From a virus, in the IMG/VR virus record IMGVR_UViG_3300045283_000397, positions 26,565 to 90,564 of that record: DNA of 64,000 bases; one strand, 5' to 3'. How positions within the stretch are numbered: the stretch's first letter is position 1; every line of letters begins with the position of its first letter. Below the pieces are notes generated by a model, which was not told the origin of the DNA, did no database searches, and saw only the letters and a program-made list of their open reading frames with translations. Shown here piece after piece: positions 4,353-39,143 of this stretch. The position numbers and the translations under genes were made by a program.

Positions 4353-4354
4353 GG

Positions 4355-9005: not shown

Positions 9006-9036
9006 CCCTAACGGGTAGCCCAGTCCGTACGCAGGC

Positions 9037-9065
9037 AGCTTAGCGCGTTTGCGCGGGCGGGTAAA
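9037..9065 (-). promoter_or_regulatory. sigma70-type promoter TTTACC-N17-TAAGCT
   Basis: Member of a recurring TTTACN-N17 promoter family; upstream of the nusG-like gene. Confidence 0.6.
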
Positions 9066-9077
9066 GGGCTAAGACAG

Positions 9078-9111
9078 GGCGACCCCGGCCCGATGCGGAA
9101 CCGGGGTCGCC
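9078..9111. terminator. Strong GC hairpin (terminator/attenuator-like)
   Basis: Perfect 11-bp stem GGCGACCCCGG/CCGGGGTCGCC; no clear U-tract. Confidence 0.45.
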
Positions 9112-9148
9112 TGCGTTGATCTCACCTTCCGACAGGTGCGAAGGTAAA

Positions 9149-9177
9149 ATCTTAGCCTAACCGGGGAGCGCAGTAAA
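9149..9177 (-). promoter_or_regulatory. sigma70-type promoter TTTACT-N17-TAAGAT
   Basis: Same promoter family. Confidence 0.6.
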
Positions 9178-9189
9178 GGCCTGGCCAGG

Positions 9190-9490
9190 GGTATTGACGG
9201 TATTGGTCCAACGCGCCTGCGCCTACGTGATCGCACGAGCGCGCGGGTGAGGTTAATACTTCAATACTCAGGGCGTGCGGGCAAGGTTACGTGGGTGTGT
9301 TCAAGGGCTTACCCCCGGTCGTTTAGGTATTGGTTAGGTATTGAATATTGATTATCCCTATTAGTAGTAATCCTATAGCTATATGTAGTAGGGTTTTTGC
9401 TAATAATTCTACGCAGGAAAAACGTAAATCATAAATACCATAGTACCTTCACCCTATAGGTAGTGCCCCACAAAGCTACCTATAGGGCTA
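9190..9490. other. Putative replication origin/control region
   Basis: GGTATTG repeats, AT-rich 9330-9450, perfect 12-bp inverted repeat 9452-9463/9476-9487, adjacent to primase. Confidence 0.45.
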
Positions 9491-9663
9491 GCGCACACCC
9501 GTTTTATAGGCTAGCCTACCCGTACTACCCTCCGACAAGGACGATCAATGCCATGCCCTCCCACACCCATCTAAGGGAATACCGCCTTCCGCGCGCCACC
9601 GACGCGCCGGGAACTTCTCCCAACACCCCCGCGGAGGAGGTCCACCCAGCGCGCTGATGCGTC

Positions 9664-16870: not shown

Positions 16871-18367
16871 TCAGTTGACATAAGCCAGCAGCTGCTGCGC
16901 CCGGGTGATGGCTACGTAGGCCAGGTTCTCTTCCTGGCGCTTCTGCCAGTCCTGCTTGGCCCAGGGGCTGGGGCACAAGCCCGACCGGTAGAGGTACACC
17001 CGGCCCCACTCGCGCCCCTTGGAGCGGTGGTAGGTGGCACAGGTGATGATGCGCTGGCCTTCGGCCGCGTCGGTGTCCGCGAACATAGTGTTAATGAAGG
17101 CCTGGACGTCGCAGACGTCCTTTTGGCCTTTATTAAGGACCGCCTGGCAGATCTCCACCAGCGTCTCGCACTTGTCCGCGACGGCTTCGGCCTTGACATC
17201 CTGGCCACGCGCCAGGTGCTTCTGCATCTCGCGCTCCCTGTAGATGTCCAGGCGATTGAGCAGCGCGTCGATGGTCTTGACCTTCCACCGCCCCGCCAGC
17301 TTTGCCAGGCCCTCGCCGATCGCGCGGCCTTCCACCTTGCAAGCCTTGCCCTGGCGGATCATCGAATAAGCTACCTGGATGAGCGGCGCGGTGTTGCGGC
17401 AGAGCACCGCGTCGCCGGCCCCGAGGTCCTCGGGCAGCGCCGGCAGCATAGCTACCTCGCCCTTGGCGGCGCCTTCGGCCGCCTCAATGTCCGGCACCAA
17501 GCGCTGGGCCTCGGCCACCACCGCGCGCGGGCAACGCCACGTCATGGTCAGCGGCATGGCCTGGGCCTGTAAGTCTTTGATCAGGTCGGTCAGCGCGTCG
17601 GCACCGGCGCCGGCAAAGCCCATGATGGCCTGGCGGTCGTCGCCCACCACCACCATGCGCCCGCTCCTCTTGAGAAACTTGCGCATCAGCGCCTGGCGCG
17701 TGCGGTTGGTGTCCTGGGCCTCGTCGAGGAAGATGAGGTCCTTACCGAATTTGACGCGGATGTTCTTGATGAGCGGGAACAGCACCATGTCGTCGAAGTC
17801 TACCACGTCGGTCTGCTCTAGCGAGGCCCGATAGATATACTGGGCGGCCTCCACGATCGCGTCCATGGCCGAAGTATCATCCAGCCCGTTCACGTCGTAG
17901 TGGTCGGCCAGCGCGTGCCAAGTCATGGCGTCGCCTATGGGGGAGTCGGTAAAGAAACCGACTCCCGCAACTTTGGCCAGGTGCACCAGTTGGCAAATCT
18001 GGGCCTCGTATTCGCGGTAGACGGCCTCGTTGCGCCCGCGCACTAGCAAGCGCACCTTGTTGTCGTCCACCTTGGGCTTGAACATGAACTTGACGAGCCC
18101 GAATCCTATGCTGTGCGTGGTGGCGGCCTGGGCCTGGCGCCAGTCCAACCCCATCTTGGCCAGCTTGCCCTTGATCTCCTCGGCGATGGCCTTGCCGAAG
18201 GCGCAGACCAGCACCTCGTGCCCGGGGAACTTCGCCAGATACGCGGCCACCCCGAGCAGGATTGTGTGCGTCTTGCCCGTGCCCGCGCGCGCCACCAGCG
18301 CCAGGTGGCTCACGCCTTCCACCAGTGCCCTTACGAAGTCCGCCTGCTGCTTGGTAGGGGTAGTCAT
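16871..18367 (-). CDS. UvrD/REP-family SF1 helicase
   Basis: ARAGTGKT, LDEAQD, VGDDRQAI, TWRCP, TYHRSKGREW, YVAITRA. Confidence 0.92.
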   Translation of the reverse strand: MTTPTKQQADFVRALVEGVSHLALVARAGTGKTHTILLGVAAYLAKFPGHEVLVCAFGKAIAEEIKGKLAKMGLDWRQAQAATTHSIGFGLVKFMFKPKVDDNKVRLLVRGRNEAVYREYEAQICQLVHLAKVAGVGFFTDSPIGDAMTWHALADHYDVNGLDDTSAMDAIVEAAQYIYRASLEQTDVVDFDDMVLFPLIKNIRVKFGKDLIFLDEAQDTNRTRQALMRKFLKRSGRMVVVGDDRQAIMGFAGAGADALTDLIKDLQAQAMPLTMTWRCPRAVVAEAQRLVPDIEAAEGAAKGEVAMLPALPEDLGAGDAVLCRNTAPLIQVAYSMIRQGKACKVEGRAIGEGLAKLAGRWKVKTIDALLNRLDIYREREMQKHLARGQDVKAEAVADKCETLVEICQAVLNKGQKDVCDVQAFINTMFADTDAAEGQRIITCATYHRSKGREWGRVYLYRSGLCPSPWAKQDWQKRQEENLAYVAITRAQQLLAYVN

Positions 18368-18550: not shown

Positions 18551-19273
18551 TCAAAATCCTTGGTACGAATTCTTTTGCCACCAGAGTTTATCGGGGACAA
18601 ATCCCCCATCATCAGCCCATCGAAAATAATCGTTTCTCATAGCTAAACGCTGCATGGCTGCTTTTCGATTTGCTACCGTTTTAGCTGACTGCTTTTTGCC
18701 TTTTCGAGCTGCGCTTAGTTTTTTCAAATGTTCTTCAGACTGCTTCTTGCCTATGAAATGTAGTCTAGTTTTCTCAATCGCTTCTTGGGAACGCTTTCGG
18801 CCCTTTAAAGAAACCCCTTGCTTTTGTCTAGATTCCAAGGTTCTTTTGGTACCTATTTTGGCTTTTCTCATTTTCTCCCGAGTTTCAGGCCCAGGTCTAA
18901 TCCCTTCATGAGCTATACTAATAAGGCGCCGAGTTTCCATCGAGAGATAACGGCCAGATTTGCTGCCGCGATAGACATTGGTGGTGCGATTATAATAGCG
19001 AACGCAAAGCTCATCGCGAGTAATCATGCTGACCCAGCGCTGCTCAATTTCCAAAAGCGCCTGGACATTCCTAATGGCTATCCGATATATTATGCGGCGC
19101 TTGAAATCTTGGGACCGTTCCCGGTACTCCTTAAGCATGGTCCGAGAAGAACAAATATAGCCATCGTCCTCTTCACCCATGTGAGAACCGACATAGAACA
19201 TTTTGCGAGAACGATCGCGCCAGATGTACACAAAACCATAAAATTTAGGCAGTGTTCCATGCATTTTTGGCAC
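18551..19273 (-). CDS. GIY-YIG-like (Seg-type) homing endonuclease with NUMOD3 repeats
   Basis: YGFVYIW...FYVGSH...Y.CSS; ETREKMR-type repeats; low GC; overlaps the end of the polymerase gene. Confidence 0.8.
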   Translation of the reverse strand: MPKMHGTLPKFYGFVYIWRDRSRKMFYVGSHMGEEDDGYICSSRTMLKEYRERSQDFKRRIIYRIAIRNVQALLEIEQRWVSMITRDELCVRYYNRTTNVYRGSKSGRYLSMETRRLISIAHEGIRPGPETREKMRKAKIGTKRTLESRQKQGVSLKGRKRSQEAIEKTRLHFIGKKQSEEHLKKLSAARKGKKQSAKTVANRKAAMQRLAMRNDYFRWADDGGFVPDKLWWQKNSYQGF

Positions 19274-21215
19274 TCCCCCAATCCTTACCGAATTCAGCGT
19301 CCACCTTCATCGGCACGCGCAATTGTACTACGTCACGCATGATCTCGGCTACTCTCAGGGCCGTTTTTTCATCGCCCACCGACACATCTATCTCGTCGTG
19401 CATCATGAGCAGCGGCGTAATTCCCTCATGCCAACATTGGCGAAGCGCCAACTTTGCCTGAATGGCCGCGCTACCCTGGATGAGGCGATTGAGGGCCTTC
19501 TGGCAGAAAGCCCGGCGCAAGCGCTTATCGGGCCACAACGCGCGCGCGGCGGCCAGCGGACGAGGATAAGCGTAACCGGGTTCCCCGTCGCGCCAGGCCA
19601 ACTCCCACAAATCGAAGTGAGAGCGCGCCCCGTTGAGCAAACGCACCCAGCCACGGCTTTCGGCCAGCTGCTGGCAGCGCTTTGCCAATTCCTTAACGAA
19701 GGGTAATTCGCGATTGTACTGATCCAAAATGGCGCGCGCAGCTTCCTCGCTCTGGCCAATCATCATCGCGAATTTCTTCACCCCGGCCCCATAGCTGACG
19801 CCGAAGTTTGCATCCTTAGCAGGTTTGCGATCCAGCCCCGTGATCTCGGCCACATATTGATGGAAGTCGGTCTCGGGGTCCTCGCGGTAGCGCTGTGCCG
19901 CTGCGCCCGCGCCAGGGAGATCTAGTAGCTCGGCGAAGTGCACGATCAATCTGTATTCCTGCTGGCTCCAATCGAACGAGCCCCACACTTCCCCCGGCTC
20001 CGGCAGGAACGCACCGCGGAACACCGCGGCTATCTCCTCATCGCGACTGGGCGCTTGCTGCAAGGCGGGGTCGGAATAGCTGAAACGATAGGAGCGCGTG
20101 CCATCCCCTGGTTCCCCTCGGTAAGAATTCACACTGGCGTGGAGCCGTCCTCTATGGGCGTAATCTAAGATAAATCCTTTAAGAAATTTGTCGGCTGCCT
20201 CGGTCAGCTGGTCCGCTCTCGACACCAGCCGCGGCAACCAGTGTTCATGCCCCCTCATCCAATCCTTGGTAAATGACCCCTGGCCCGTTTTGGCCGTGCG
20301 CGGGTAGCCTATGCGCTGGGAGTCATGCGCCTTCTCCAGCCAGCGCGGCGAGCGCACCTGCTCCATCCCCAGCGCCGTCACTCCCAGCTGCTCGGTCAGC
20401 TCCTTCAGCACCCCATCGCGCTTTTCCAGCAGCGCCCCCCGGCTCCGCGCCACGCCCTCCAGGTCCACCCTAATGCCGCGGCGCCGCATCTCCAGGCACA
20501 TGGGCACCAAATCCATCTCCAGCCTATACGCTGCCCAGGTGCCCTCGGCCTCCAGCGTCGGCACCAGCGCGTTATAGAGCGCCAGCGTGGCCCTGGCGTC
20601 CGCCTCCGCGTACAAGCCCACGTAGCGCGCCGGCAGCCTCCACAGCGCGCCCTTTACCGCGTCGCCATGGTACCCGTAGGCAGCCGCGGCCTCCCTAAGC
20701 GCGCGCTCGTCCTTCCCCGGCAGATCGCGCCACCGGCAGAGATCGTCCAGCTGGTAGTTGAGCCGATTCTCATCGACCATCACCGCGGCGGCCAAGCTAT
20801 CCTCTATGATCGAGGGAGGTTCCAGGCCCCATTGGGCGCGCTGCCACCCGAGATCGTAGTTGGCAGAATGGTACAGCCAGCGCAGCCCCCCGGCCGCGGC
20901 GTGGTGGTCGCCCAGCCAGCGCCTCACCGCGCCTTCATCAAAATTCGCCCCCTCAGGGTGGCGCAGCGGCACGTAGATGGCCTGATCGTCCCAGGCCCAA
21001 GCTATTCCGGCTATGTGCCCGCTACGGTACGGCCAGCCCGACCCGCGCCCGGCGGCGAGCGAGTCGTCGCGCGTCTCGATGTCTTCCGCGATAATCAACT
21101 CTCCCCGGTCGCGCAGATCGGGCAATTCCGCCGGCGCCACCCACGCGGAAGGCGGCGTTATCAAGGGGAGTTGCTCTCCTCCAATGTGGACGCTTTTGGC
21201 CCGGGCGCGCGCCAT
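19245..21215 (-). CDS. Family A DNA polymerase with 3'-5' exonuclease domain
   Basis: EDIET, ANYD, YAEAD (exo); FDWSQQEYR (motif A), RKPAKDANFGVSYG (B), HDEI (C). Confidence 0.95.
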   Translation of the reverse strand: MARARAKSVHIGGEQLPLITPPSAWVAPAELPDLRDRGELIIAEDIETRDDSLAAGRGSGWPYRSGHIAGIAWAWDDQAIYVPLRHPEGANFDEGAVRRWLGDHHAAAGGLRWLYHSANYDLGWQRAQWGLEPPSIIEDSLAAAVMVDENRLNYQLDDLCRWRDLPGKDERALREAAAAYGYHGDAVKGALWRLPARYVGLYAEADARATLALYNALVPTLEAEGTWAAYRLEMDLVPMCLEMRRRGIRVDLEGVARSRGALLEKRDGVLKELTEQLGVTALGMEQVRSPRWLEKAHDSQRIGYPRTAKTGQGSFTKDWMRGHEHWLPRLVSRADQLTEAADKFLKGFILDYAHRGRLHASVNSYRGEPGDGTRSYRFSYSDPALQQAPSRDEEIAAVFRGAFLPEPGEVWGSFDWSQQEYRLIVHFAELLDLPGAGAAAQRYREDPETDFHQYVAEITGLDRKPAKDANFGVSYGAGVKKFAMMIGQSEEAARAILDQYNRELPFVKELAKRCQQLAESRGWVRLLNGARSHFDLWELAWRDGEPGYAYPRPLAAARALWPDKRLRRAFCQKALNRLIQGSAAIQAKLALRQCWHEGITPLLMMHDEIDVSVGDEKTALRVAEIMRDVVQLRVPMKVDAEFGKDWGSAKNAWNTA

Positions 21216-21625: not shown

Positions 21626-22399
21626 TCATGGGGCCTTGCTCAGGTGGTTCCATTTGATCATGGTGTGGCCGCTCTCGCCGTCAAGTTGCACATAGGCATC
21701 GCCATCTTGCAAGAACTCCTTGGCCACCCCGGTCCGGCCATAATAGGTATGGCCGGGGGTGGTGCACACCACCCGGTCGCCCACCTTCATATCGAAGGCA
21801 CCGCCTCCGGGCACTATGTTCTGGCGCGCATGGTGGCCGCCATCTTCCGGTGTGCCCGGCCTGTTGGGCTCCTCGCGCCATTTGGCCCCGCGCCTTGCCA
21901 ACTCCGCCCTTATATCGCGCGCCAGCGCGTCGCCCACGCGCGAAAGCGGCGAGCGCCCGAGATCGATCAGTTGCGCGCGCAAGCCCGAGGTGGACCACTG
22001 ATTTAGTGACTGTCTGTTGAGGGGAGGTTCCGTAGCCAGTGGCCCCGTCCTTATCACGCTGCGCGCAGCCATTTCCGCTTCCACTAAAAGCAAATAGCGC
22101 CTCAAGTCGCGCACCTCGGCCAACACGGTGCCATCCCCGCCTGTGGCGTCGGCTTCGACGGCGGCAAACACGTCGTAGCGCTCCACCGTCAAGTTGGGCT
22201 GGCCCGCGCGCGAGCGATTGAGAATGTGCGTCTCGCGCCCTAGCATATTCTCCAAGCGGTCCCACTTGCGCGCCAACATATGAAACGCGCCGCAACCACC
22301 ACGCTTTTTCCAGGAACCTTGGTAAGTTTTTTCTTTTTCTTTTATATGTTCCACATCAGACTGGGCGATCGAAAATAAATAATCTAGATGGCTGGACAT
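21626..22399 (-). CDS. Nmad1/DUF1599 (MazG-like) nucleotide-modification-associated protein
   Basis: KEKTYQGSWKKRG...MLARKWDRLEN...DLRRYLLL. Confidence 0.7.
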   Translation of the reverse strand: MSSHLDYLFSIAQSDVEHIKEKEKTYQGSWKKRGGCGAFHMLARKWDRLENMLGRETHILNRSRAGQPNLTVERYDVFAAVEADATGGDGTVLAEVRDLRRYLLLVEAEMAARSVIRTGPLATEPPLNRQSLNQWSTSGLRAQLIDLGRSPLSRVGDALARDIRAELARRGAKWREEPNRPGTPEDGGHHARQNIVPGGGAFDMKVGDRVVCTTPGHTYYGRTGVAKEFLQDGDAYVQLDGESGHTMIKWNHLSKAP

Positions 22400-22890
22400 T
22401 TAGCCCTCCTTTTCTCCCAACCTCTTTTAGCAGACTTGGACATTCTTTCTTTCACTCCTGGTAAAGCCCACCATGCAAGAATAGAAGCTTTCATCTTAGG
22501 GCGGGGGCCGGGGGGCCTCTTGATTAAACCGTCTCTTTCAGCTTTTTGTTGGTTTTGAGATCGAGTGAGGAGTTGAAGATTTCTTAGTCTACAATCTAAT
22601 TTCTTATTATTTATATGATCTACCTCCATTTTAAGGGAGATAGGACCATTAAACCAAAACCAAACTAACCGATGAGTATAAACCATTTTGCCGTGATGGC
22701 GAACTTGTCCTCTACCATTAGGACCGGGGGTGTGTCCCACTCTTCTCCAGGGGCCTTTAATATGGGTAGGGCCACCCATTTGCTTACAAGTTAAAATATG
22801 ACCTGATTTATTTACTCTATAAAGACCACTGGTCTTCATAATAGGAAATAAATAATCGTTTTTACCTGTGTATCTATAATTAGGCACCAT
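22384..22890 (-). CDS. HNH homing endonuclease
   Basis: HRLVW...VDHINNKKLDCRLRNLQLLT..QN; low GC. Confidence 0.85.
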   Translation of the reverse strand: MVPNYRYTGKNDYLFPIMKTSGLYRVNKSGHILTCKQMGGPTHIKGPWRRVGHTPGPNGRGQVRHHGKMVYTHRLVWFWFNGPISLKMEVDHINNKKLDCRLRNLQLLTRSQNQQKAERDGLIKRPPGPRPKMKASILAWWALPGVKERMSKSAKRGWEKRRAKCPAI

Positions 22891-23425
22891 CGGCCACCGC
22901 CTCCTCCAGCCTCTCGCGCTTGATTTGATAGGCAAGCAGGTTGGTGCGGATAAATTCGGGCAGCTTCATCTCCAGCAGTGTCGCGCGGCACCGCTGGGCG
23001 ACCAGCGCCGCATACCTATTGCCCATGTTGATCTCATGCAGCGCCCATTCCAGCATCTCGAGCGTCTCGGCCGCTTTGAATACCGCGCGATCCATCTCGC
23101 TCAGCACCTGCACCCCCGGCAGCTGCCAGCGCTTGGCCATCGCGCGGTGCGCCTCGTCCTCGCTCACATCCAGCGCGGCCTTGAGCAGCTTGTTGCTGCG
23201 CTTGGCGTGCCAGCTACAATCCCCTGCCCAAAGTTCTCCCACATCATGGACTAGTCCATGGACTAGCACGTGGCGCGGGCAGTCAGGCCAGATCGCCAGC
23301 AGCAGCCGCATCACCTGCCAGCTGTGTTCCCCGGTAGTCTGGCGGCTAACGTGCGGGAACACCCCGTAGCGCGGTATCTGACCAGCGCGCCGGGCGTCTA
23401 GCACGTGCTCTTCGCGCATGGTCAT
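22880..23425 (-). CDS. HD-domain 5'-deoxynucleotidase (YfbR-like)
   Basis: RY...QTTGEHS...LVHDVGE...GD. Confidence 0.8.
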   Translation of the reverse strand: MTMREEHVLDARRAGQIPRYGVFPHVSRQTTGEHSWQVMRLLLAIWPDCPRHVLVHGLVHDVGELWAGDCSWHAKRSNKLLKAALDVSEDEAHRAMAKRWQLPGVQVLSEMDRAVFKAAETLEMLEWALHEINMGNRYAALVAQRCRATLLEMKLPEFIRTNLLAYQIKRERLEEAVADGA

Positions 23426-23967
23426 GCGGGCGCCTTCGTCCTGATATTTTGCATGGCGAATTGCACGCAGCGCGCTTGATGCTTGGCATCGTCAAGGGCG
23501 TTGTGATGCATACCCTGGCGCAGAATGGATCGTGGATCGAATTGAACGATTTCGAAAAGGGTGCGTGTGCAGCGCACATTCCAAAATTTCCAAGGCACCA
23601 TGGTACCGACCGCGTGTGCCGCTGCCAGCCACAGCGGCTCATCAAAGTTGGCGCCGTGCGACCATATCTGCTCGGCCCTGGCTTCCCAGAGGAACCATTG
23701 GTGGAATTCCTTTACGACTTCGCTAAGCGCGCGCGGATCGATTAGAAGCGCGGCTTCCGCTTCGCGCGATTGGCGTGACCACCATTCTTTGGTTGCTGTA
23801 TCGACGATGAGGCCGGCTTCAAGGCAGGAAACATAGTCGATATTGCGATAGAATTCAGCACCCGTAATCTTCCCCAATGGATCGAATGCAACCGCCCCGA
23901 TGGAGCGTAGCACGCACCCTGGCCGAGTGCCGTATGTTTCGAGATCGAGCATTACGTTGAGCATCAT
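23422..23967 (-). CDS. 3'-5' exoribonuclease-like DEDD protein (Rv2179c/DUF5051 type)
   Basis: VMLDLET, SIGAV.F, W.HGANFD, RCTRT, HNALDDA. Confidence 0.82.
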   Translation of the reverse strand: MMLNVMLDLETYGTRPGCVLRSIGAVAFDPLGKITGAEFYRNIDYVSCLEAGLIVDTATKEWWSRQSREAEAALLIDPRALSEVVKEFHQWFLWEARAEQIWSHGANFDEPLWLAAAHAVGTMVPWKFWNVRCTRTLFEIVQFDPRSILRQGMHHNALDDAKHQARCVQFAMQNIRTKAPA

Positions 23968-24061
23968 ATCCTCCGCCCCGCCCACACCAGCGCCGCGACA
24001 ATCGCCAGCGCTAGCGCGCCCTGGGCCGCCTGGCCCAGGTCCATATACATCGGCCCCGTCA

Positions 24062-25180
24062 TCATGACGCCACCATCTCCGGCTTGCGCATCCGGCGCTC
24101 GAACCACTCGCGGCATGCAAGGCGCCAATCCGTCGCTGCTATTTCTGTGGTAAGCGCCAAGGCTTCATTGCGGTGGCCCAACCTCCACAGCCGCATGCAG
24201 ACGGCCATGGGCCAGACCGTGCGCGAGAGGAACATATTGCGGAACCCCCAATTTGGCGCGCAAGGCTCTGGGTCAATAACGTGTAGGTCGTCCAACATTT
24301 CCATCAAGCGCATCAGCTCCCGGTCAAAGCTCTCGGGCTCGTCCACCAGCGCCATCGGCGCCACCCCGGCCGTGGCGTAGCCGTTGCCCGCTAGCGCGAG
24401 AGGCAAGCCGAGGGCGCGCAGCGCGCTGACCGGGGTGCCCTTGGGTGCGCCCGCGCGTCGCGCCAAGCGCTCCAGTTCGATCACGTAGATATGTAGGTTC
24501 CAGCTAACCATGGTCAATGTGCCCACCTGCACTCCGATCATGGCGGCTAGGTATTCGAGCAAAATTGCAAAATGAACGGAATTCGCGCCCGCAAGCCCAA
24601 ACAAAAAATCATGGCTGCGGCTGGTGGTCATCATATGCAGCGCATCGTCACGCACGCGCAAATTTATCATGAGATTACAGGGCCTATCGCGCCACTCGCC
24701 CTTGAGATCGTTGGCACCGATGGTATACCTATCGTAGACGTCGGCAGCGGCGATATCTGATGCATCCCACATCTGGATTACGGCCTGGCGATCCCCCCGG
24801 TTACGGCGCAGCTTCTCGATGCAGACGGCTAGCTGGTCGTAGCCGAAGTGCGTCCTCCACCTTTGTCCATAGCCGCCATGGATGTTGCCGTCGGGCTCGG
24901 CAAAGCGCGCGCCGAAGTCGCTGATGTAATTGTTGAGCAGAGCCGCGTCCGAGCGCCCCGCCAGCATGGCCGCCGCCTCTATGAGGTGGAATGCAGGATT
25001 GGCATCCCTCACCGCATTGAACAGCACGCACTCGCGCGGGCGCGCATATACGGTGGCCACCGGCCCCGGCGCCACCAGCACCGGCCCGTTGCGGGACGCC
25101 TCCTGGCTCCCGTGCTGGAGCAGATAGTCCACGCCCAGGGGCAGCGCCTCGGCGACATTGACCGCGTGTATTACGTGCAC
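24062..25180 (-). CDS. Thymidylate-synthase-fold enzyme, probable dUMP hydroxymethylase
   Basis: RDANP, YGQRWR, DRQAVIQMWD, catalytic PCN, RSHD..FG..GAN (Asn at the dUMP-specificity position), NLHIY. Confidence 0.82.
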   Translation of the reverse strand: MHVIHAVNVAEALPLGVDYLLQHGSQEASRNGPVLVAPGPVATVYARPRECVLFNAVRDANPAFHLIEAAAMLAGRSDAALLNNYISDFGARFAEPDGNIHGGYGQRWRTHFGYDQLAVCIEKLRRNRGDRQAVIQMWDASDIAAADVYDRYTIGANDLKGEWRDRPCNLMINLRVRDDALHMMTTSRSHDFLFGLAGANSVHFAILLEYLAAMIGVQVGTLTMVSWNLHIYVIELERLARRAGAPKGTPVSALRALGLPLALAGNGYATAGVAPMALVDEPESFDRELMRLMEMLDDLHVIDPEPCAPNWGFRNMFLSRTVWPMAVCMRLWRLGHRNEALALTTEIAATDWRLACREWFERRMRKPEMVAS

Positions 25181-25395
25181 TCGCGTGTCTCCGCGCTGGG
25201 ATGGGCCGTGACAAAGGCGTCGCGCTCCTCCCGGATGGCAAAGCCCCAGGTCCTAACGCGCGTGGAGAATACGACTGAGAGGTGCTTCCCCGGCACGCGC
25301 TCGGGCCGCACCTTGGTGCTGGATGTAGCGCAGAAGGGGTAGCGGTGTTTACGCTCTTCCCAAAATGTATGTGCTTTTCCCATGGGCACTACCAT
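25171..25395 (-). CDS. Hypothetical protein
   Basis: Small ORF overlapping the TS start. Confidence 0.5.
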   Translation of the reverse strand: MVVPMGKAHTFWEERKHRYPFCATSSTKVRPERVPGKHLSVVFSTRVRTWGFAIREERDAFVTAHPSAETRECT

Positions 25396-25487
25396 GGGCC
25401 CGCGCGCAGGCGCAGTAAAGCGTGGAGGCCCGCCAGCGCTAGCTGGTCGGGCCCCCTACAGTCCAGCAACTCTGTGGGGGGACGGGG

Positions 25488-26123
25488 TTACTCGACCGCG
25501 ACGTATCCCTTCTCCACGTCCCAGCGCAGGCAGCCCAGCGCCACCGAGCGCCCGAGCTTCTCGCACAGCGTGGCGACCTTTATGCCGGTGCGGTAGGCGG
25601 CGAACCATTCGTGCGCCTTGGTGCCCTCGCGCTTGGGGTTGCCCTCCGCCAGAACGGTGATCTTGGCCTCGTCGCCGTAGGCCGGCGCGCGTCCGCGCCG
25701 CCCGCTTCCATTGCCTTCCTTCTTCGCCTTCTTAGCCTTGGCCATCTGGCCCTCCTTGCTTTCTGCCGGGGCCGGATATGCCTGCGGCGGTTCCTGCGGT
25801 ACAGTGGGTGGCTCGGCCGGGGTCACCCGCATGGCCTCGGCTTGGTCTTGTAACACCTCTTCGCAGAGGCGCTCGGCGCGCGGGTCGGCACGCAACCTAG
25901 CCAGGCCGGGGCTAATATCGTCCCCCCCGGCGCGGCGCTGGCCCTCCTTGTGGGCCTTCATGCTGCTGGCGATGGCCGCCAGCGACTTCTCGGCGTCGCT
26001 GCGGTCCTTGAAGCAGCGCCGCTCGCGATAGTGCGTCAATCCCGCGAGTTGCGCGTCGGCAACCAAAGTGTTGTAGGCGCGCAGCATCTGCTGGATGGTC
26101 ATCTCGCTATAGTCGGTCTTCAT
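25488..26123 (-). CDS. Hypothetical protein with C-terminal NPKR...WD..KG domain
   Basis: GAACTGGG leader; GNPKREGTKAHEWFAAYRTGIKV...LRWDVEKGYV. Confidence 0.65.
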   Translation of the reverse strand: MKTDYSEMTIQQMLRAYNTLVADAQLAGLTHYRERRCFKDRSDAEKSLAAIASSMKAHKEGQRRAGGDDISPGLARLRADPRAERLCEEVLQDQAEAMRVTPAEPPTVPQEPPQAYPAPAESKEGQMAKAKKAKKEGNGSGRRGRAPAYGDEAKITVLAEGNPKREGTKAHEWFAAYRTGIKVATLCEKLGRSVALGCLRWDVEKGYVAVE

Positions 26124-26205
26124 TGCCCAGTTCTCTCCTGATAGTGGTTTATTAGTATTCAACCTCTAACCCATCTCTTGGAGAATGTAAAGGGGGTCCG
26201 CGAAA

Positions 26206-27012
26206 TTATTTTCTTCCGTCTTCGGCTGCTTTTTTCCAGGCCACGGTGACTTCGGTGCGAGTGCCGAAGCCTTCGGCGTCTGTTTTATTGGCCTTTTGGC
26301 GTAATTTTACATAACCGGGGTGAAGTTCTACTAGGCGCTGAGCGCTGGCTTCGTGCAGCGCATGGGTGCGCCAGAGCGAGCATCCCCCCGGCGCATTGGT
26401 CTGTCCCTGATCGTTGGCCCAGTAGCAGAGATTGGCATTGCCCAGACCCGCGCGCAATAGCTGGAGCTGTACGTCGAAGTCTTCCATGACCGGGAGGCGG
26501 TCATGTTCGCAGGCCAAGAATTCCTTGGTGCGATAGACGAGCACACGCATCACGCGCGTGTCGCGCAGCACCAAGTCCTCCGGCGTGCCCACGCCGTGCC
26601 GATTGTTGCCTTCGCGGCTGCTCACCCCTGCCGAAGCCACCTCGGCCAAGCAATCCAGCAGCGCCGCCAGCATTTGTTCCATATCACCCCAGGCCACGGG
26701 GCGCAGGTGCCAGCTCTCGTTAGATTTCCTTACAAAAAAGCGCACGTCGTCGTCCATCATCAGGAAAGCATCCTGCCCCTGGCCGCTGGCCATTTCGCCA
26801 ATGATGCGTCTCTTCTCACCGATAGACCTATATCCGATTCCTTCTACCGTCACGCCTTTAATAGAGTTATTGGCCAATTTGTTCTTGTATCGGGCGACTT
26901 CGTCTCCCGGCACGACCAATATGGTGCGCGCGCGCAGCCCTGGTCCCATATCTGCGAGCGGGCCGTGTGGGATGAGCGCGGCGCGCCCCCGGCTGGGGAT
27001 GTAGATCTTCAT
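26206..27012 (-). CDS. GT-A glycosyltransferase, TAGT/GREB1-like (base J glucosyltransferase-related)
   Basis: IYIPSRGRA, IGEKR..I, MMDDD (DxD), EDFD..LQLL..G, TNAPGGCS. Confidence 0.78.
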   Translation of the reverse strand: MKIYIPSRGRAALIPHGPLADMGPGLRARTILVVPGDEVARYKNKLANNSIKGVTVEGIGYRSIGEKRRIIGEMASGQGQDAFLMMDDDVRFFVRKSNESWHLRPVAWGDMEQMLAALLDCLAEVASAGVSSREGNNRHGVGTPEDLVLRDTRVMRVLVYRTKEFLACEHDRLPVMEDFDVQLQLLRAGLGNANLCYWANDQGQTNAPGGCSLWRTHALHEASAQRLVELHPGYVKLRQKANKTDAEGFGTRTEVTVAWKKAAEDGRK

Positions 27013-27737
27013 GATTTTCTTCGAATACGTTTACCAAGCCCTTGTTTCTTAGCTCTTCGAGAAGCTGCGGCGCGCTTCTCCGGCGTCCAAGCACTCCGTT
27101 GTTTTTCACGCGTTTCCAAGCTGGCCTTGCGCCCAGTGTTTAATATGCGTATGCGCCTGCTTTGTTCTCGACGCCGCTTAGGTGTCCATGCTGCACGCTG
27201 CTTGGCACGTGTTTCTTTACTAAACTTGATACCGCGCCTTTTCTCTCCGGCTATGGCTGCTTTAATAAGGAAACTCGCCACAGATTCTGCCGACCAAGTT
27301 TTACGGCCGAATTTACCTTTGGCGTGTTGTTTCTTAACTCGTCGTGATCGGCGTTTTATTTCTTCGGGATCTGCTGCAATTTGCAAAGCAGCTACGCTCA
27401 TTTTAATTTTTGTTTCTTCAGTATGTTTAGACCCTTTGGGGGTACCAGCATTGGGTTGGACATTTAATAAAGGGCCATCATAATTATCCAACCACCATTG
27501 TTCCCTGATGTCCAATTCGGACTCAGGGCAAAGTTCCATTATTTTATATTGCCAGTCCTTTGGATTGGTGCTGTTCCAAGCGTCTAATAATTTCTTGCTA
27601 TGGTGCCATGGCCGTTTGAGCATGGCCCGATGATATGAAAATCTGTTCTCTATCCACACTGACCCACCAATATATGCCATTTTGGTCAGCACATGGATCA
27701 GGGCATATATGCCGCAACTCTTTTTAGGCCTGGCCAT
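27009..27737 (-). CDS. GIY-YIG homing endonuclease with NUMOD3
   Basis: GIYAL...AYIGGS...R...H; KHTEETKIKMS; low GC. Confidence 0.85.
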   Translation of the reverse strand: MARPKKSCGIYALIHVLTKMAYIGGSVWIENRFSYHRAMLKRPWHHSKKLLDAWNSTNPKDWQYKIMELCPESELDIREQWWLDNYDGPLLNVQPNAGTPKGSKHTEETKIKMSVAALQIAADPEEIKRRSRRVKKQHAKGKFGRKTWSAESVASFLIKAAIAGEKRRGIKFSKETRAKQRAAWTPKRRREQSRRIRILNTGRKASLETREKQRSAWTPEKRAAASRRAKKQGLGKRIRRKS

Positions 27738-28605
27738 TCCCTTCGAAAAGGCGCTTGGGCCTCCCCTCCCCTAGTCGCACGCGCTCATATTTGTCGAATT
27801 CGCAATTTAGCGATTGACAGTCTTGACCATGAAATGGCTCGTGTAGCCATTTGCTATTTATCCAGTCTTGCAGCCTGCGCAGCTGCAAGCGCCATTCATC
27901 CTCGCGCCACGCGGCATCCTTTGGCCTATTCAAAATCCTATTTAAGCCACGCCTGCTCCCTGGGCCACTGGCAGCGAACGTATACCAGTCCACGGCCTTG
28001 CGCAACGGCTCCACATATTTGCAGTCAGCAATTACTTGCGCGGCCATAAAGCTACCGAGCCCTTGCATCTGGCCCAGCAGCATGTGGTAACTGTTTAGAC
28101 TGTCCCCCGGTTTGGGCCGCAACCTTTCTCGCCCCTGCCAGAGTGGTTGCAACACTTCCACTGTGACATACTCTGCCTTGCTCATCTTGCGCCCATTGGT
28201 GCTGACGATGTAAGCTGGCCCAAAGCACAGTTCACCATACTCCTTGCGCCGCGCCATCACCCTCAAGAACCTCTCAGGCTCCCAAGGCACCGGCCAGCCG
28301 ATCTCCGCCAGCGTCTCCGGCCAATTCACGAATCTTGCAACAACCATCCCGAACCACAAATCCTCATCCCCGGCGTAGGGCTCGCGCCAATTAACCCGGA
28401 TCCATTGCGTCACAGCATCATCCTCGCGTCGAATGTTGCAAAATCTGTAAGAACGTAAGATGATGTCATCCGTCCAAGGCTTCGGCTGCCCCGCCGAGCG
28501 CCTAAGCCTGATGGCCTCGCGTTCAACGGCGAAGGCCAGGAGACGTTCGCGCGGATCGGCAATGGCGCCAATCTTAGTTTCAATCGCTGGCGCGGGCACT
28601 GCCAT
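27724..28605 (-). CDS. aGPT-Pplase1 / 5-hmdU DNA kinase helical-domain protein (HhH-glycosylase-like fold)
   Basis: EREAIR...PWTDDIIL.SYRFCNIRREDD, RFVNW, GLGSFMAAQVIAD, GPGSRRGL, CEFDKY. Confidence 0.78.
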   Translation of the reverse strand: MAVPAPAIETKIGAIADPRERLLAFAVEREAIRLRRSAGQPKPWTDDIILRSYRFCNIRREDDAVTQWIRVNWREPYAGDEDLWFGMVVARFVNWPETLAEIGWPVPWEPERFLRVMARRKEYGELCFGPAYIVSTNGRKMSKAEYVTVEVLQPLWQGRERLRPKPGDSLNSYHMLLGQMQGLGSFMAAQVIADCKYVEPLRKAVDWYTFAASGPGSRRGLNRILNRPKDAAWREDEWRLQLRRLQDWINSKWLHEPFHGQDCQSLNCEFDKYERVRLGEGRPKRLFEGNGQA

Positions 28606-29020: not shown

Positions 29021-30292
29021 CTAGGTTTCTACTACGGGAACATATTCCTTGGGAGTAAGACCAAAAGTCCAAGCCGCCGCCTCGTGCGCCTTGGTTATTT
29101 GGGGCGGGACACGTAAAAAATAATGTTTAAAACTGCCGTCGAGTTCGCGTGTCGAGTTAACTACCTCCAGCATTACAATGGGCTCGTCGAAGGGCAGCTC
29201 GCGCCGCCAGAGCGTGCCATAATTCTCATCATAGTCTAGCCGCTTGCCCCCGGCATCGCGGATATAGGCAGCGGCGCCTTTGATTTCGGCCTTGGGCCGA
29301 TACTGATCAATCATTACCCGACGGACCTCGGCATTTCGCTCCTTGTCCACAGCTTCTATGGTGATGGTTTCGGGTTTCTCGATAATTTGCGCAGGCACCC
29401 TAACGCCGTGCACCGCATAAATGGCCCAGCCATCTGGGTAAACGCAAGCCGGCCCTGTGAGTGAGTGCAGGTGACCGCGCTCATCTCGCATTAGTATGTG
29501 GTGACGCTCCGAGACCCAACAGATGTTCTGATGCGGCAAAGCCCAACCGGTACTCTGGGAGAGTTCCCACAACCCTGCCAATTTTTGAGTTTCTGCAACA
29601 AGGCCCAAAGTCTCATAAAAATAGCTATAAAAGGCTAACCAAGAAGCATCATGGGCTCCGTACACGCTGTCCCCCACGCTGGCCCACACGCTGTCCCGCA
29701 CGCTGGCCCACACGCTGTCCCGCACGCTGTCCCGCACGCTGTCCCCCACGCTGGCCCACACGCTGGCCCACACGCTGGCCCACACGCTGTCCCCCACGCT
29801 GGCCCACACGCTGTCCCGCACGCTGGCCCGCACGCTGTCCCCCACGCTGTCCCGCACGCTGTCCCGCACGCTGTCCCGCACGCTGGCCCGCACGCTGGCC
29901 CACACGCTGTCCCGCACGCTGGCCCGCACGCTGGCCCACACGCTGTCCCACACGCTGGCCCCCACGCTGGTCCCCACGCTGGTCCCCACGCTGTCCCGCA
30001 CGCTGGCCCACACGCTGGTCCCCACGCTGTCCCGCACGCTGTCCCCCACGCTGTCCCATTCCCGGTCAAGGATGATGGCCCGGGTTAACCCCTGTGAAAG
30101 CGGCGACCCACACCAAATTATCTTGCGCGGGGGTTTAAGTCCCCCTTGTCGATAAGTCTCGTAAATAGCGGCCTCGGCCCTGGGACGATTGGCCACATCA
30201 GTACAGAGTCCAATTTTGGTCCAGTGCTCTACAAACTCGGGGAAGCGCGCAATTTGTTTGGGCGTGAGGCGCTCGATCTTAGTCCGCGACAT
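29021..30292 (-). CDS. DUF6745-like protein with internal tetrapeptide repeat
   Basis: GHLHSLTGPA..YPDG..IYAVHGVRVP, NAEVRRVMI, VVNST.E.DGS...YFLRVPP. Confidence 0.8.
   Translation of the reverse strand: MSRTKIERLTPKQIARFPEFVEHWTKIGLCTDVANRPRAEAAIYETYRQGGLKPPRKIIWCGSPLSQGLTRAIILDREWDSVGDSVRDSVGTSVWASVRDSVGTSVGTSVGASVWDSVWASVRASVRDSVWASVRASVRDSVRDSVRDSVGDSVRASVRDSVWASVGDSVWASVWASVWASVGDSVRDSVRDSVWASVRDSVWASVGDSVYGAHDASWLAFYSYFYETLGLVAETQKLAGLWELSQSTGWALPHQNICWVSERHHILMRDERGHLHSLTGPACVYPDGWAIYAVHGVRVPAQIIEKPETITIEAVDKERNAEVRRVMIDQYRPKAEIKGAAAYIRDAGGKRLDYDENYGTLWRRELPFDEPIVMLEVVNSTRELDGSFKHYFLRVPPQITKAHEAAAWTFGLTPKEYVPVVET
29663..30058. repeat. 33 x 12-bp tandem repeat, CACGCT plus variable hexamer
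   Basis: Encodes SV(R/W/G)(D/A/T) units within the DUF6745-like gene. Confidence 0.95.
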
Positions 30293-30648: not shown

Positions 30649-32151
30649 CTATACCCAAGGACACGCTAGCTGCCCGCCCGCGGCCACCAGCGTTAACCGT
30701 TCACGCGCTCGCGTTACCGCCACGTACCAAACACGGCGCTCAGGATCAGGATTGGTCTCCATTTCCTGATGCGTCCTTTTTGCCATATCCGATAAAACGA
30801 TTACGTATTCTGCTTCACTGCCCTTGGACCCGTGTATGGTGCTGATGCGCACCCTAGGCTTGGCGCGTAGCCGCTCGCCGCGCCTGCGCATCGCCAAGAT
30901 GTAGCCCACGTCCTGCTGCGGGAGGCGATCGAGCGCGACGTGCCAGATCGCGTCGACAAGCAGGCCGCCCTTCTTCTTGAGATCATCCAGCGTGACCGGG
31001 GGGGCCTGCTCGTCGAATGCGCTGAGCGATTTGTATCCGCGCGCTACCCCGCGCCCCACGCTCATGGCCTGGTACACTGCGCGCGCTGCTTCCACCGCCA
31101 CCGCGCCCCCGGCCCTTAGCCTCTCCCAGTCAGATATTACCTGCAAGACTTCGGTGCTTACCGAAGGCTTTTCATTGCGGTGATAGTACACGCCGGCTTC
31201 GCGCAGCGCGGGCGCCACCACATCGTTGAGCACATAGGCGTTGCGCGCCAGCACCAGCACGTCCGGCCCCTCGGTCAGCCCCACGTCGAAGGCGACCTCG
31301 TGCGCCACCGCGCCCTCCGCTGCGCGCGGCGCCCACTGCTTAGGCCTGCGGTGCGCTACTGGGGAGATGAGTGTATTGGCGAGGATCTGTACAGCGCGCG
31401 GCACGCGGTAGGATTGGCCCAGCACGCGCACGTCCCCGGCCATGTCCACTAGATGGGACGAGTCTGCTCCGGCCCATTGGAAGATTGCCTGGTCGTCATC
31501 CCCGGCCACCACGCAACGCTTGGCGCCCTGCCTGAGGCGATCGAACACATCCCACTGTAATTTCGGGAGGTCTTGACATTCATCTCCTATTAATGTCTCC
31601 AGGCGCAGCTGGAGGCCCTCCCTGAGGAATTGCTGGAGCATGTCGGTGTAGTCCATCAGCCCCCGCGCACGCTTGAATTCGCGCAACGCGCGCGCCACTC
31701 GCTCCACCTCGTGCCACGGCAGGCCATCATCAAACTGATCGAACTGCTCTCGCAGTTTGACCATCTTGATTCTTGCCAAGTTTTCCATAAAGATGATGCG
31801 GTCGCCGGGCTCGAAGCCCGCCTGGAGCCCGTCTTCCGACCACCCCCCGGTCACCCTTATGCCGGCCCAGTCGGCGAATTCCCTGGTCGCCTTGCGGTCC
31901 ATCACCTCGCCCGGGCGCAGGCCCAGCAGCCGGAAGCACAAGGAGTGCAGCGTGCGGAACCAGGGCAGCTGCGCGCGCGCCAGCCCGAACTTCTCGCTCG
32001 CGCGCGTCACGGCCTCCTCGGCCGCGCGCCGCGTGAACGAGAGGTAGGCGATGCGCTCGGGTGCCACGCCGCGCGCCAGCTCTGCGTCTACGATGTCGAG
32101 TAGCGACGTAGTCTTGCCGCAGCCGGGGGGGCCAAGGATAATCTCGGGCAT
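30649..32151 (-). CDS. Second UvrD/REP-family SF1 helicase
   Basis: GPPGCGKT, DECQD, AGDDDQAIFQW, QSYR, STIHGSKGSE, YVAVTRA. Confidence 0.92.
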   Translation of the reverse strand: MPEIILGPPGCGKTTSLLDIVDAELARGVAPERIAYLSFTRRAAEEAVTRASEKFGLARAQLPWFRTLHSLCFRLLGLRPGEVMDRKATREFADWAGIRVTGGWSEDGLQAGFEPGDRIIFMENLARIKMVKLREQFDQFDDGLPWHEVERVARALREFKRARGLMDYTDMLQQFLREGLQLRLETLIGDECQDLPKLQWDVFDRLRQGAKRCVVAGDDDQAIFQWAGADSSHLVDMAGDVRVLGQSYRVPRAVQILANTLISPVAHRRPKQWAPRAAEGAVAHEVAFDVGLTEGPDVLVLARNAYVLNDVVAPALREAGVYYHRNEKPSVSTEVLQVISDWERLRAGGAVAVEAARAVYQAMSVGRGVARGYKSLSAFDEQAPPVTLDDLKKKGGLLVDAIWHVALDRLPQQDVGYILAMRRRGERLRAKPRVRISTIHGSKGSEAEYVIVLSDMAKRTHQEMETNPDPERRVWYVAVTRARERLTLVAAGGQLACPWV

Positions 32152-32540
32152 CATGTGAATAGGCGCAAGATCATGGTTTTGGCATTTTCTAAGGTAGTGG
32201 CTTTGACGCAGGCTGGGTGGTGGCGCCAAGTGCCGAAACTGGAGCAATCGCCCGCGATAAAGACCGGGATGCCATTGGCGATGGCGATGCCTACCTCTAC
32301 CAGGGCGCCACGCAACTCGTCTCCCGGTTCTGCGTAGACGATGAGCGCGCGCGAGGTTTCCACGTCGTGCTGATCTACCATCCAGAAAATATGAAAATCC
32401 TCGGGCGTAGCGGACTCTTCATGCGCGGCTTGATCGAACCAGCGCGCGTGTAGATCTATGCCATGTTGCTTCCATTCGTAGCGCAAATCACACAAGCGCG
32501 GCGCATATTTAATCTTACTGGCGATATAGACACGGATCAT
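32151..32540 (-). CDS. Nucleoside 2-deoxyribosyltransferase-like protein
   Basis: VYIAS...D..DV......GALVEVGIAIANGIPV. Confidence 0.65.
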   Translation of the reverse strand: MIRVYIASKIKYAPRLCDLRYEWKQHGIDLHARWFDQAAHEESATPEDFHIFWMVDQHDVETSRALIVYAEPGDELRGALVEVGIAIANGIPVFIAGDCSSFGTWRHHPACVKATTLENAKTMILRLFT

Positions 32541-37655: not shown

Positions 37656-39143
37656 ATGATGCAACCTACCATAATGTTAACCCCGATGCCCGAAGCCAAT
37701 ACCTATAGGCCGCGCACCATGCCCTATGCGCACCAGCGCGAGGCCGCGCGTAGGCTGGCCGCGGCACCAGTTTTCGCGCTCCTCATGGCCATGCGGACCG
37801 GCAAATCGAAGTCATTAATCGATGATTGGGGCGCGCGCGCCGCAGCCGGGGGGATAAGTGGCCTGCTTATCGCGGCCCCGGCCGGGGTCTACATGACTTG
37901 GTACAAGCAATTCGAGGACCACTTGGGCGAGCCGCTCAACTCGGGGCGCACGCTCGTGCAGCACTGGGCTAGCGGCGCGGGCGCAGCGCGCGCTCGCGCG
38001 CTAGAAGCGTTCCTGGCCACCAAGGGGCGGCCCCGGGTGCTGCTGGTGAATACCGAGGCGTTCTCCACCGTGGCTAGGGCGCGCGAGCTCTGCCACGAAT
38101 TCCTGGGCCAGGGCCCGGCGATGATGGTCGTGGATGAAAGCACCTCCATCAAGGGGAATAGCGAGCGCACCGAGCAGGTGCTGCGGCTGGGGGCCAAGGC
38201 GGCGGTGCGCCGCATACTCACCGGCTTGGTCACGCCCAAGAGTCCGTTGGACCTATTCTACCAATTCTACTTCCTGGATCCCAAGATATTGGGCTTCAAC
38301 AGCTTCTTTAGCTTCCGGCGCCGCTACGCCGTACTCCAGCCCATGTACTTTGGCGGGCGCACCGTGCAAGTCGTCGCGGGCTATCGCAACCAGGAAGAGT
38401 TGCGCGACAGAATAGCGCCCTACAGTTATCGCGTGCAATTGGAGAACTGCTACGATGTGCCCGCCAAGCTTTACCTCCAGCGCGAGGTGGAATTGACGCC
38501 CGAACAAAAGCGCCTCTATAAGGAGATTAAAGAAAATGCTACCGCCCAATTGGAAACGGGGGAGTGGGTCTCGGCCACCGCAGTCATCGTACAGATCATC
38601 CGGCTGCACCAGATACTCTGCGGCCATATTAAGAACGATGAGACGAGCGCGATTACCCCGGTGCCCAGCAACCGCATCAAATCGCTCGTGGAGTTGCTGC
38701 GTGAGCACGATGGCAAGGCCATCGTCTGGTGCTCCTACGACTACGACGTGCGCGCGGTAAGCGCGGTGCTGGCTAGGGAGTTTGGGGAGGGGTCCGTGGC
38801 GCGCTTCTGGGGCGGCAATCGCGCGGAGCGGGAGGGGGAGGAATATCGATTTCTTAATGACCCGGGCTGCTTGCACATGGTGGCCACCGCGGCGGCCGGG
38901 GGGCGCGGGCGCACCTGGACTGTGGCCAACCTCGTGGTCTACTACAGCAACACCCATGATTTGGAGCACAGAAGCCAGAGCGAGGAGAGGGCCCAGGGCG
39001 TGGGCAAGGCGGACCGCGTTACCTATGTGGACCTCATCGCGCCCGGCACGGTGGACGAGAAGATCGTGCGCGCGCTGCGCAAGAAGATCGACCTCGCCGC
39101 GGCCATCACTGGCGATGGATGGCGCGCCTGGCTCATCGACTAG
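37656..39143 (+). CDS. SNF2-family SF2 helicase
   Basis: PYAHQ, MRTGKS, VVDES, LTG..TP..PLD, QSEERA, TVDEKI. Confidence 0.9.
   Translation: MMQPTIMLTPMPEANTYRPRTMPYAHQREAARRLAAAPVFALLMAMRTGKSKSLIDDWGARAAAGGISGLLIAAPAGVYMTWYKQFEDHLGEPLNSGRTLVQHWASGAGAARARALEAFLATKGRPRVLLVNTEAFSTVARARELCHEFLGQGPAMMVVDESTSIKGNSERTEQVLRLGAKAAVRRILTGLVTPKSPLDLFYQFYFLDPKILGFNSFFSFRRRYAVLQPMYFGGRTVQVVAGYRNQEELRDRIAPYSYRVQLENCYDVPAKLYLQREVELTPEQKRLYKEIKENATAQLETGEWVSATAVIVQIIRLHQILCGHIKNDETSAITPVPSNRIKSLVELLREHDGKAIVWCSYDYDVRAVSAVLAREFGEGSVARFWGGNRAEREGEEYRFLNDPGCLHMVATAAAGGRGRTWTVANLVVYYSNTHDLEHRSQSEERAQGVGKADRVTYVDLIAPGTVDEKIVRALRKKIDLAAAITGDGWRAWLID

Follow-up and report, generated by a model that had tools for sequence, protein, structure and literature searches.

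A phage operon predicted to replace thymine with 5-hydroxymethyluracil and to glycosylate it directly, without a DNA kinase or dioxygenase

The window analysed here is a 64,000-nucleotide stretch of DNA, the right-hand 64 kb (positions 26,565 to 90,564) of the virus record IMGVR_UViG_3300045283_000397, which is 90,564 bp long with direct terminal repeats, a CheckV completeness of 100% and a GC content of 61.5%. The source is a complete, uncultivated tailed phage, and the region at 19.2–28.7 kb of the window is a nucleotide-metabolism and DNA-modification operon. We consider it probable that this operon replaces thymine with 5-hydroxymethyluracil (hmU), to which a sugar is then attached directly, without a DNA kinase or dioxygenase. 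A thymidylate synthase (TS) homologue would convert dUMP to 5-hydroxymethyl-dUMP (5-hmdUMP), as its residues and homology suggest, an HD-domain nucleotidase would help to remove competing dTMP, and the phage polymerase would put 5-hydroxymethyldeoxyuridine (5-hmdU) in place of T. A glycosyltransferase (GT) of the TAGT family, with a GT-A fold, would then move a sugar from a nucleoside diphosphate (NDP)-sugar onto the 5-hydroxymethyl group of hmU in DNA, a role suggested by its family, its motifs and neighbourhood statistics. The product would be a base-J-like O-glycosylated thymine analogue, made with neither phosphorylation nor TET/JBP oxidation. An earlier sequence-only reading of the window had proposed replicative incorporation of hmU followed by direct glycosylation, and comparison with related loci supports it, through a TS signature shared between locus types and the mutual exclusion of GT and kinase genes.

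The operon is a compact run of genes, every one on the minus strand, with adjacent open reading frames (ORFs) mostly contiguous or sharing a few bases. In the order of transcription these encode a helical protein, a GIY-YIG endonuclease, the TAGT GT, a 224-aa protein, a 74-codon ORF, the TS homologue, an Rv2179c-like exonuclease, the HD nucleotidase, an HNH endonuclease, a 257-aa protein, two small ORFs and the polymerase. That co-oriented genes lie upstream of the polymerase had been pointed out from the sequence, and Pfam and PHROG matches confirm it; the hidden Markov model (HMM) searches called for at the time bear out, with scores above the family cut-offs, the helical protein of aGPT-Pplase clade 1 (HMUDK), the TAGT glycosyltransferase, the TS homologue and the HD nucleotidase. 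The GIY-YIG, HNH, exonuclease and 224-aa genes are additions to the earlier list. A megablast search with an 8-kb region gave zero matches among 50,697 phage records, and the operon is syntenic with those of the cultured phages PhiJL001 and LuckyBarnes.

The TS homologue (24062–25180, 372 aa; PF00303, E 6.5e-19; phrog_5131, E 1.6e-81) was aligned with solved ThyA structures. In E. coli numbering, C146 is kept, within an RPCN sequence that aligns with the catalytic PCH and retains its Pro-Cys, L143 is replaced by Asp, D169 is kept and position 177 is Asn. The motif SRSHDFLFGLAGAN, whose Asp aligns to ThyA D169 and whose Asn aligns to N177, is the one that the sequence-only reading had cited (as RSHD..FG..GAN) for an Asn at the dUMP-specificity position, and it is indeed present. 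In work on TS homologues, Asn177 goes with the use of dUMP rather than dCMP, an acidic residue 143 accompanies hydroxymethyl rather than methyl products, and Asn169 is the mark of 5-hydroxy-dCMP synthases (PMC13326640). Because its residues at 143 (Asp), 169 (Asp) and 177 (Asn) fit these rules, the protein reads as a predicted dUMP hydroxymethylase, with all four features of that branch (Cys146, Asn177, acidic 143 and Asp169). Its closest named relatives are the enzymes of Pseudomonas phage M6 and YuA and of Bordetella phage, at 36–38% identity over the full length. It is the sole TS in the genome, from which ThyX is also absent. The YfbR-like HD-domain 5'-deoxynucleotidase (22880–23425; PF12917, E 7.1e-9; phrog_6047, E 1.8e-26), whose gene comes after that of the TS in 64 of 85 loci, is a candidate enzyme for depleting the dTMP pool, and the operon closes downstream with the family-A DNA polymerase (19245–21215; PF00476, E 4.7e-36; phrog_17, E 3.1e-90), which has syntenic counterparts in PhiJL001 gp28 and the M6-like polymerase.

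The predicted DNA 5-hmU glycosyltransferase (26206–27012), the only TAGT in the genome, matches PF20691 with E 1.6e-17 and 64.6 bits, against a cut-off of 27.5, and phrog_842 with E 2.8e-38. Its model (pLDDT 89.6) has a GT-A fold with matches of the TarS/TarP type, while searches with its sequence against PDB sequences gave nothing meaningful. The invariant residues R68, D87-D88-D89 and D178-F179 fit the R...DDD...EDF motif of phage DNA GT-A enzymes and the kinetoplastid base J glucosyltransferase JGT (Pyle et al., bioRxiv 10.1101/2023.12.21.572611), so that family, fold and motif are all those of the TAGT/JGT group. The association of TAGT enzymes with a TET/JBP dioxygenase is not seen here, as no Tet_JBP domain is encoded in the complete genome. 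According to the sequence-only reading, phage TAGT enzymes are usually found with TET/JBP; this view is out of date, since about half of the metavirome GT-A enzymes lie in 5mYOX and about half in ThyS neighbourhoods, and the combination of TS and GT-A genes is thus already known as a genomic category, framed by the same authors as cytosine modification (Pyle et al.). T4 beta-GT is able to glucosylate 5hmU in DNA (PMC4111573).

The enzymes that would be required by other routes were sought by six-frame searches of the complete genome. There was no match to Tet_JBP, none to the 5-hmdU DNA kinase families AAA_33 and HMUDK_HMUD1 (PF18748), and none at E<=1 to the amino-acid:DNA transferase (ADDT or AADT; clade-2 aGPT-Pplase, PF18724). 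A kinase profile built from 23 sequences of related loci found nothing in this genome, and the same profile matches 12 related genomes with E values of 1e-42 to 1e-73. Neither did tblastn against the genome give a match with the M6-like kinase or with the M6-like pyridoxal-phosphate (PLP), radical SAM, Nmad5 and dCMP-deaminase proteins. A Pfam scan of the larger ORFs of the left arm and of the window to ~43 kb turned up no kinase among the helicases, primase, terminase and sugar enzymes that it identified; beyond ~43 kb the window's ORFs were not scanned singly, and for the genome as a whole the absence is based on the six-frame searches with family models and profiles. The earlier observation that P-loop kinase, amino-acid:DNA transferase and dioxygenase are missing from the window, which came with a proposal to search the rest of the genome for kinase and TET genes, therefore holds for the complete genome. 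Of the M6/ViI-type system of 5-hmdU DNA kinase and AADT, the operon has the (predicted) dUMP hydroxymethylase and lacks both the P-loop kinase and the transferase; of the kinetoplastid base J pathway, it lacks the JBP1/2 thymidine hydroxylase.

The comparative evidence comes from 80 IMG/VR loci that encode a homologue of the helical protein at 40–56% identity; their neighbouring genes were clustered, and six-frame translations were scanned with profiles built from the clusters. Of the 80 loci, 70 have a TS homologue and most have an HD gene. The place beside the helical gene is taken by one of three alternatives: a TAGT-like GT-A in 27 loci, a P-loop 5-hmdU DNA kinase recognised by Pfam in 24, and in 9 a 318-aa protein that has no Pfam match and that the Atlas groups with GT-B enzymes of the T4 beta-glucosyltransferase type (feature score 0.96, TM 0.78). 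With the last, the slot of the GT-A or kinase would have a second glycosyltransferase that is not homologous to the first, which brings the loci with a glycosyltransferase beside the helical gene to 36 of 80. In 26 of the 27 GT-A loci no more than 500 nt separates the GT from the helical gene (median gap -3 nt), and the same holds for the kinase in 18 of 24. Glycosyltransferase and kinase never occur together (0/80 loci), an outcome expected by chance with a probability of 4.8e-6 when GT-A alone is set against the kinase and of 1.1e-8 when GTs of both folds are. The same is seen at the level of whole genomes, where 15 of 34 have the GT, 12 the kinase and none both. GT and kinase are therefore strictly exclusive alternatives adjoining the helical gene. 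A column tally over 75 TS homologues shows an identical active-site signature in 30 GT-type, 25 kinase-type and 20 other loci, and the chemistry of the M6 kinase and transferase on 5-hmdU in DNA is experimentally established (PMC8989533). Since the TS signature is shared across locus classes and kinase-type clusters work on 5-hmdU, the simplest reading is that the glycosyltransferases, too, would act directly on the hmU handle.

Two further observations concern these loci. The 318-aa protein is encoded in L009, L012, L026 (8003–8959), L030, L035, L036, L040, L043 and L047. A radical SAM/SPASM protein stands beside the core of GT, helical and TS genes in L013, L018, L027, L059 and others (e.g. 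L015:7107–8081), a hint that these phages may tailor the modified base further.

The helical protein (27724–28605; 293 aa from the ATG at 28605, with a longer ORF to 28665) belongs to aGPT-Pplase clade 1, or HMUDK_hel, matching PF18723 with E 3.4e-37 and 128.8 bits, against a cut-off of 25, and phrog_2396 with E 7.8e-54. Its AlphaFold model (pLDDT 94.8) has the all-helical fold of helix-hairpin-helix (HhH) and AADT-like proteins. The best PDB match is 8z2n, the PaMx11 protein gp46/PUGT (Z 11.3 over 224 residues, rmsd 4.0), followed by about 40 HhH DNA glycosylases (Ogg, EndoIII and MutY) at Z 6–10, after which values fall to Z 3; a Z near 11 is not decisive alone for helical proteins, but the match list is uniform. 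Neither the single sequence nor a 41-sequence profile gave anything meaningful against PDB sequences. Among 41 homologues C268, E269, D271 and K272 are invariant, forming a C-E-x-D-K motif with a near-invariant Q-N before it, as are about 20 other residues. A profile alignment (hhalign) with the AADT family is weak (E 0.088) and hints that the Cys is placed on the catalytic Cys of AADT, a residue that is essential and is stacked on the flipped base (PMC8989533, PMC11472151).

The sequence-only reading had taken the helical protein for a subunit that flips out or recognises the base, which would be non-catalytic and would present hmU to the GT or, in other phages, to the kinase. The gene abuts, and often overlaps, that of the GT, kinase or GT-B protein, in Pfam the domain takes its name from 5-hmdU DNA kinases, as their helical domain, and the fold is that of base-flipping HhH enzymes. 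These points give the idea some weight, but the evidence does not specifically support it and we regard it as rather unlikely. An invariant Cys-Glu pair together with some 20 further invariant residues is typical of enzymes, the fold is PUGT-like with the Cys falling on the AADT catalytic Cys in the (weak) profile alignment, and a subunit would need to dock with three unrelated folds. The Pfam name implies an adjacent or fused kinase, whereas the neighbour here is the GT, from which the helical gene is separated by the inserted endonuclease gene. On other contigs (proteins P0001–P0017) the HMUDK_hel domain is fused, at either end, to family-A polymerases, Prim-Pol/PriCT_2/AAA_25 primase-helicases, Toprim primases, VapE and D12 (Dam) adenine methyltransferase, and the long relatives found are polymerase and primase fusions, not GT fusions. 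In M6, neither kinase nor transferase requires the clade-1 protein gp55 for activity in vitro (PMC8989533), and MW202897, a complete 40-kb genome, has GT, TS and HD genes and lacks the helical gene. A predicted complex of GT and helical protein scored 0.26 against a mark of 0.32, which is not evidence either way.

The AADT-like fold, the invariant Cys motif, the polymerase and primase fusions, MW202897 and the dispensability of gp55 together suggest that the helical protein is probably a core, replication-associated enzyme of hmU phages and not a dedicated transferase subunit. As the partner of TS whichever modifier is present, it would most likely be an enzyme in its own right on hmU-containing DNA, with a base-flipping fold of the AADT/HhH-glycosylase kind and an invariant Cys at the position suggested for the AADT nucleophile. 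Given the tight gene adjacency, a partnership with the products of the modifier genes is possible. A more tentative proposal, to which we give a low probability, is that the clade-1 aGPT-Pplases are replisome-linked, Cys-dependent enzymes of C5-methylene chemistry that would act on hmU derivatives with any leaving group, be it phosphate, a sugar from either GT fold or water. The phages M6, ViI, PhiW-14 and SP10 turn non-hypermodified hmU into thymine before packaging, a reaction for which the paper names no enzyme (PMC8989533), and reverting such hmU would be one candidate role; that a clade-1 protein is the hmU-to-thymine enzyme is speculation. Glycosyl-hmU could then be, in part, an activated intermediate.

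Glycosylation of hmU in DNA has also to be weighed against a GT directed at something else, a cell-wall polymer, lipopolysaccharide or protein, in a phage whose DNA contains plain 5-hmU (as in SPO1) or T. The closest solved structures are TarS and TarP, which are GT-A enzymes of wall teichoic acid, and a separate sugar cluster encoding UDP-galactopyranose mutase (GLF), an epimerase, GT9-like enzymes and a sugar C-methyltransferase has the look of surface or virion glycosylation. Such a target is nevertheless improbable: the GT gene is situated inside the TS/polymerase operon, the GT gene abuts the helical gene in 26 of the 27 loci that have it and excludes the hmU DNA kinase in loci and genomes alike, and the protein scores above the cut-off of the Pfam TAGT family, whose name stands for TET-associated glycosyltransferase, and has the DNA GT-A motif. 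The cytosine route of T4, in which the TS would make 5-hmdCMP or 5-hydroxy-dCMP (5-hodCMP) and the GT would glycosylate the modified C, is very improbable even though the biochemically characterised phage TAGT-type GT-A enzymes all act on 5-hydroxymethylcytosine (5hmC) (PMC8256090; bioRxiv 10.1101/2023.12.21.572611) and TS homologues are able to make 5-hydroxycytosine (PMC13326640), because position 177 of the TS is Asn and not Asp, position 169 is Asp and not the Asn of 5hodCMP synthases, the protein is homologous over its full length to the M6-group enzymes and, in sister loci, the same type of TS serves an hmU kinase.

Several points weigh against direct glycosylation of hmU. The substrate of the TAGT relatives characterised so far is, as noted above, 5hmC, and the PHROG family is named after a T6 enzyme that glucosylates a sugar and not the base. 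The rules for Asn177 and Asp143 are correlative. The operon is interrupted by two homing endonucleases. Neither dCMP deaminase nor dUTPase, which PhiJL001 and M6-like phages encode, was found in the six frames of the complete genome, which bears on the supply of dUMP and on the extent of thymine replacement. Finally, in the papers searched, no report of DNA chemistry was found for this phage or for any phage with the TS and TAGT module, PhiJL001 and LuckyBarnes included.

The gene clusters closest in layout are those of M6 and PaMx11 (Pseudomonas), ViI (Salmonella), PhiW-14 (Delftia) and SP10 (Bacillus), which have an M6-type TS, the HD protein, the clade-1 aGPT-Pplase and the family-A polymerase in the same order (PMC8989533). 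These clusters and the present operon would share the use of pre-replicative 5-hmdU as a handle for post-replicative chemistry; the operon differs in having no 5-hmdU DNA kinase, clade-2 amino-acid:DNA transferase or PLP, radical SAM and FAD tailoring enzymes, with the TAGT GT in the position of the kinase. With the TAGT enzymes of phage 5hmC hypermodification and with JGT (PMC8256090; bioRxiv 10.1101/2023.12.21.572611) the GT shares the Pfam family, the GT-A fold, the R...DDD...EDF motif and the predicted O-glycosylation of a 5-hydroxymethylpyrimidine in DNA. In contrast to those systems, the hydroxymethyl group is here predicted to come from the TS homologue at the nucleotide level and not from TET/JBP acting on DNA, and the predicted acceptor is hmU, not hmC. 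As for the helical protein, PaMx11 gp46/PUGT is a 5-PmdU glycinyltransferase of aGPT-Pplase clade 2 (8z2n; PMC11472151) and has a Cys in a similar C-terminal motif, but there is no similarity detectable by HMMER, the motif is QN-x-x-CE in the helical protein as opposed to ET-x-x-C in PUGT, and the present phage has no kinase to supply a phosphorylated substrate.

The same module, made up of the genes for helical protein, TAGT, TS, HD protein and polymerase, is found in cultured phages. In PhiJL001, an Alphaproteobacteria phage, it extends from gp19 to gp28 (gp19 helical, gp22 GT, gp23 Nmad5, gp24 TS, gp28 polymerase), with a dCMP deaminase at gp30, and identity to the present phage is 40% for the GT, 37% for the TS and 36% for the helical protein. 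In the Brevibacterium phage LuckyBarnes it comprises gp38 (helical), gp39 and gp40 (tandem GTs) and gp41 (TS). PhiJL001 thus adds Nmad5 and the dCMP deaminase and LuckyBarnes has two GTs in tandem, while neither carries homing endonucleases.

The two endonuclease genes that interrupt the present operon encode a GIY-YIG/NUMOD3 homing endonuclease (27009–27737; phrog_314, E 3e-14, with weak Pfam GIY-YIG and NUMOD3 matches) and an HNH homing endonuclease (22384–22935; PF13392, E 4.1e-15). Their GC contents of 46.5% and 42.9%, respectively, are low against that of the genome, and they therefore look like recent insertions. The GIY-YIG gene separates the helical gene from that of the GT, whereas in relatives the two abut. 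ORFs of low GC content (41–50%) are numerous in the window, at 27009–27737, 22384–22935, 18551–19273, 5317–6696, 59338–60021 and 61043–61771. Four of these are homing-endonuclease-like (GIY-YIG, HNH, NUMOD3), two within the modification operon and one beside the polymerase; 59338–60021 and 61043–61771 were flagged on composition only. The window also encodes a 372-aa IS605 OrfB/TnpB-type protein (7210–8328, minus strand, 50% GC) with OrfB_IS605 and Cas12f1-like TNB domains.

The remaining proteins of the operon are an Rv2179c-like 3'-5' exonuclease (23422–24120; PF16473, E 1.4e-44; phrog_255, E 2.4e-48), the conserved 224-aa protein and the 257-aa protein. The 224-aa protein (25488–26162) has two small domains, the C-terminal one resembling a helix-turn-helix; HTH_23, at E 0.097, is its only match to a Pfam or PHROG family, and it lacks a Walker A motif. 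Relatives adjoin the pair of GT and helical genes in 33 of 85 loci, and the C-terminus resembles PhiJL001 gp18. The 257-aa protein (21626–22399) had been called Nmad1. It has no Pfam or PHROG match even at E 5, and six-frame searches of the genome found no match to the DUF1599 (PF07659) or Nmad5 HMMs, so we do not file it under that name. What stands of the assignment is a lead from the Atlas, which combines a language model with structure: a feature score of 0.93 to clusters bearing DUF1599 and a TM of 0.58 to a cluster that is 100% DUF1599, suggesting a DUF1599-like N-terminal domain. Its N-terminal 100 aa have relatives in 10 loci.

The gene immediately upstream of the helical one encodes a DUF6745 protein (29021–30292, minus strand; E 3e-54), with an N-terminal half built from many successive short repeats of the type D/A-S-V-R/G/W-x-S-V. 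A replication and transcription set is also present in the window and includes two UvrD-like helicases, an SNF2 helicase, an AEP-type primase and a NusG-like protein (16871–18367, 30649–32247, 37656–39143, 9664–11226 and 8406–9005). The sugar genes lie outside the window, at 1140–11214 and 25143–26399 of the genome, and encode the UDP-galactopyranose mutase, an NAD-dependent epimerase, the GT9-like protein, a fusion of TPR and GT9, a DUF5672 protein and the sugar C-methyltransferase. This cluster could supply unusual donors, or possibly serves virion or cell-surface glycosylation; the TPR-GT fusion suggests glycosylation of protein or surface. UDP-galactopyranose mutase was considered as a regular partner of the module and source of the DNA sugar, which is unsupported, as it is absent from all 33 of the related genomes searched.

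If the proposed pathway is correct, glycosyl-hmU derived from a nucleotide-level pool would give bacterial viruses a counterpart of base J that arises by another pathway, and would likely shield the phage DNA from host nucleases. It would also mean that the hydroxyl of hmU can be used directly, whereas the thymidine hypermodification pathways solved experimentally all begin with a DNA kinase. The kinase-free context singles out the uncharacterised clade-1 aGPT-Pplase, found together with the TS in most of the sampled loci. Modified bases are relevant to the evasion of restriction and CRISPR, to sequencing artefacts and as a source of enzyme tools, and the module is common; its presence in cultured phages makes the predicted base testable.

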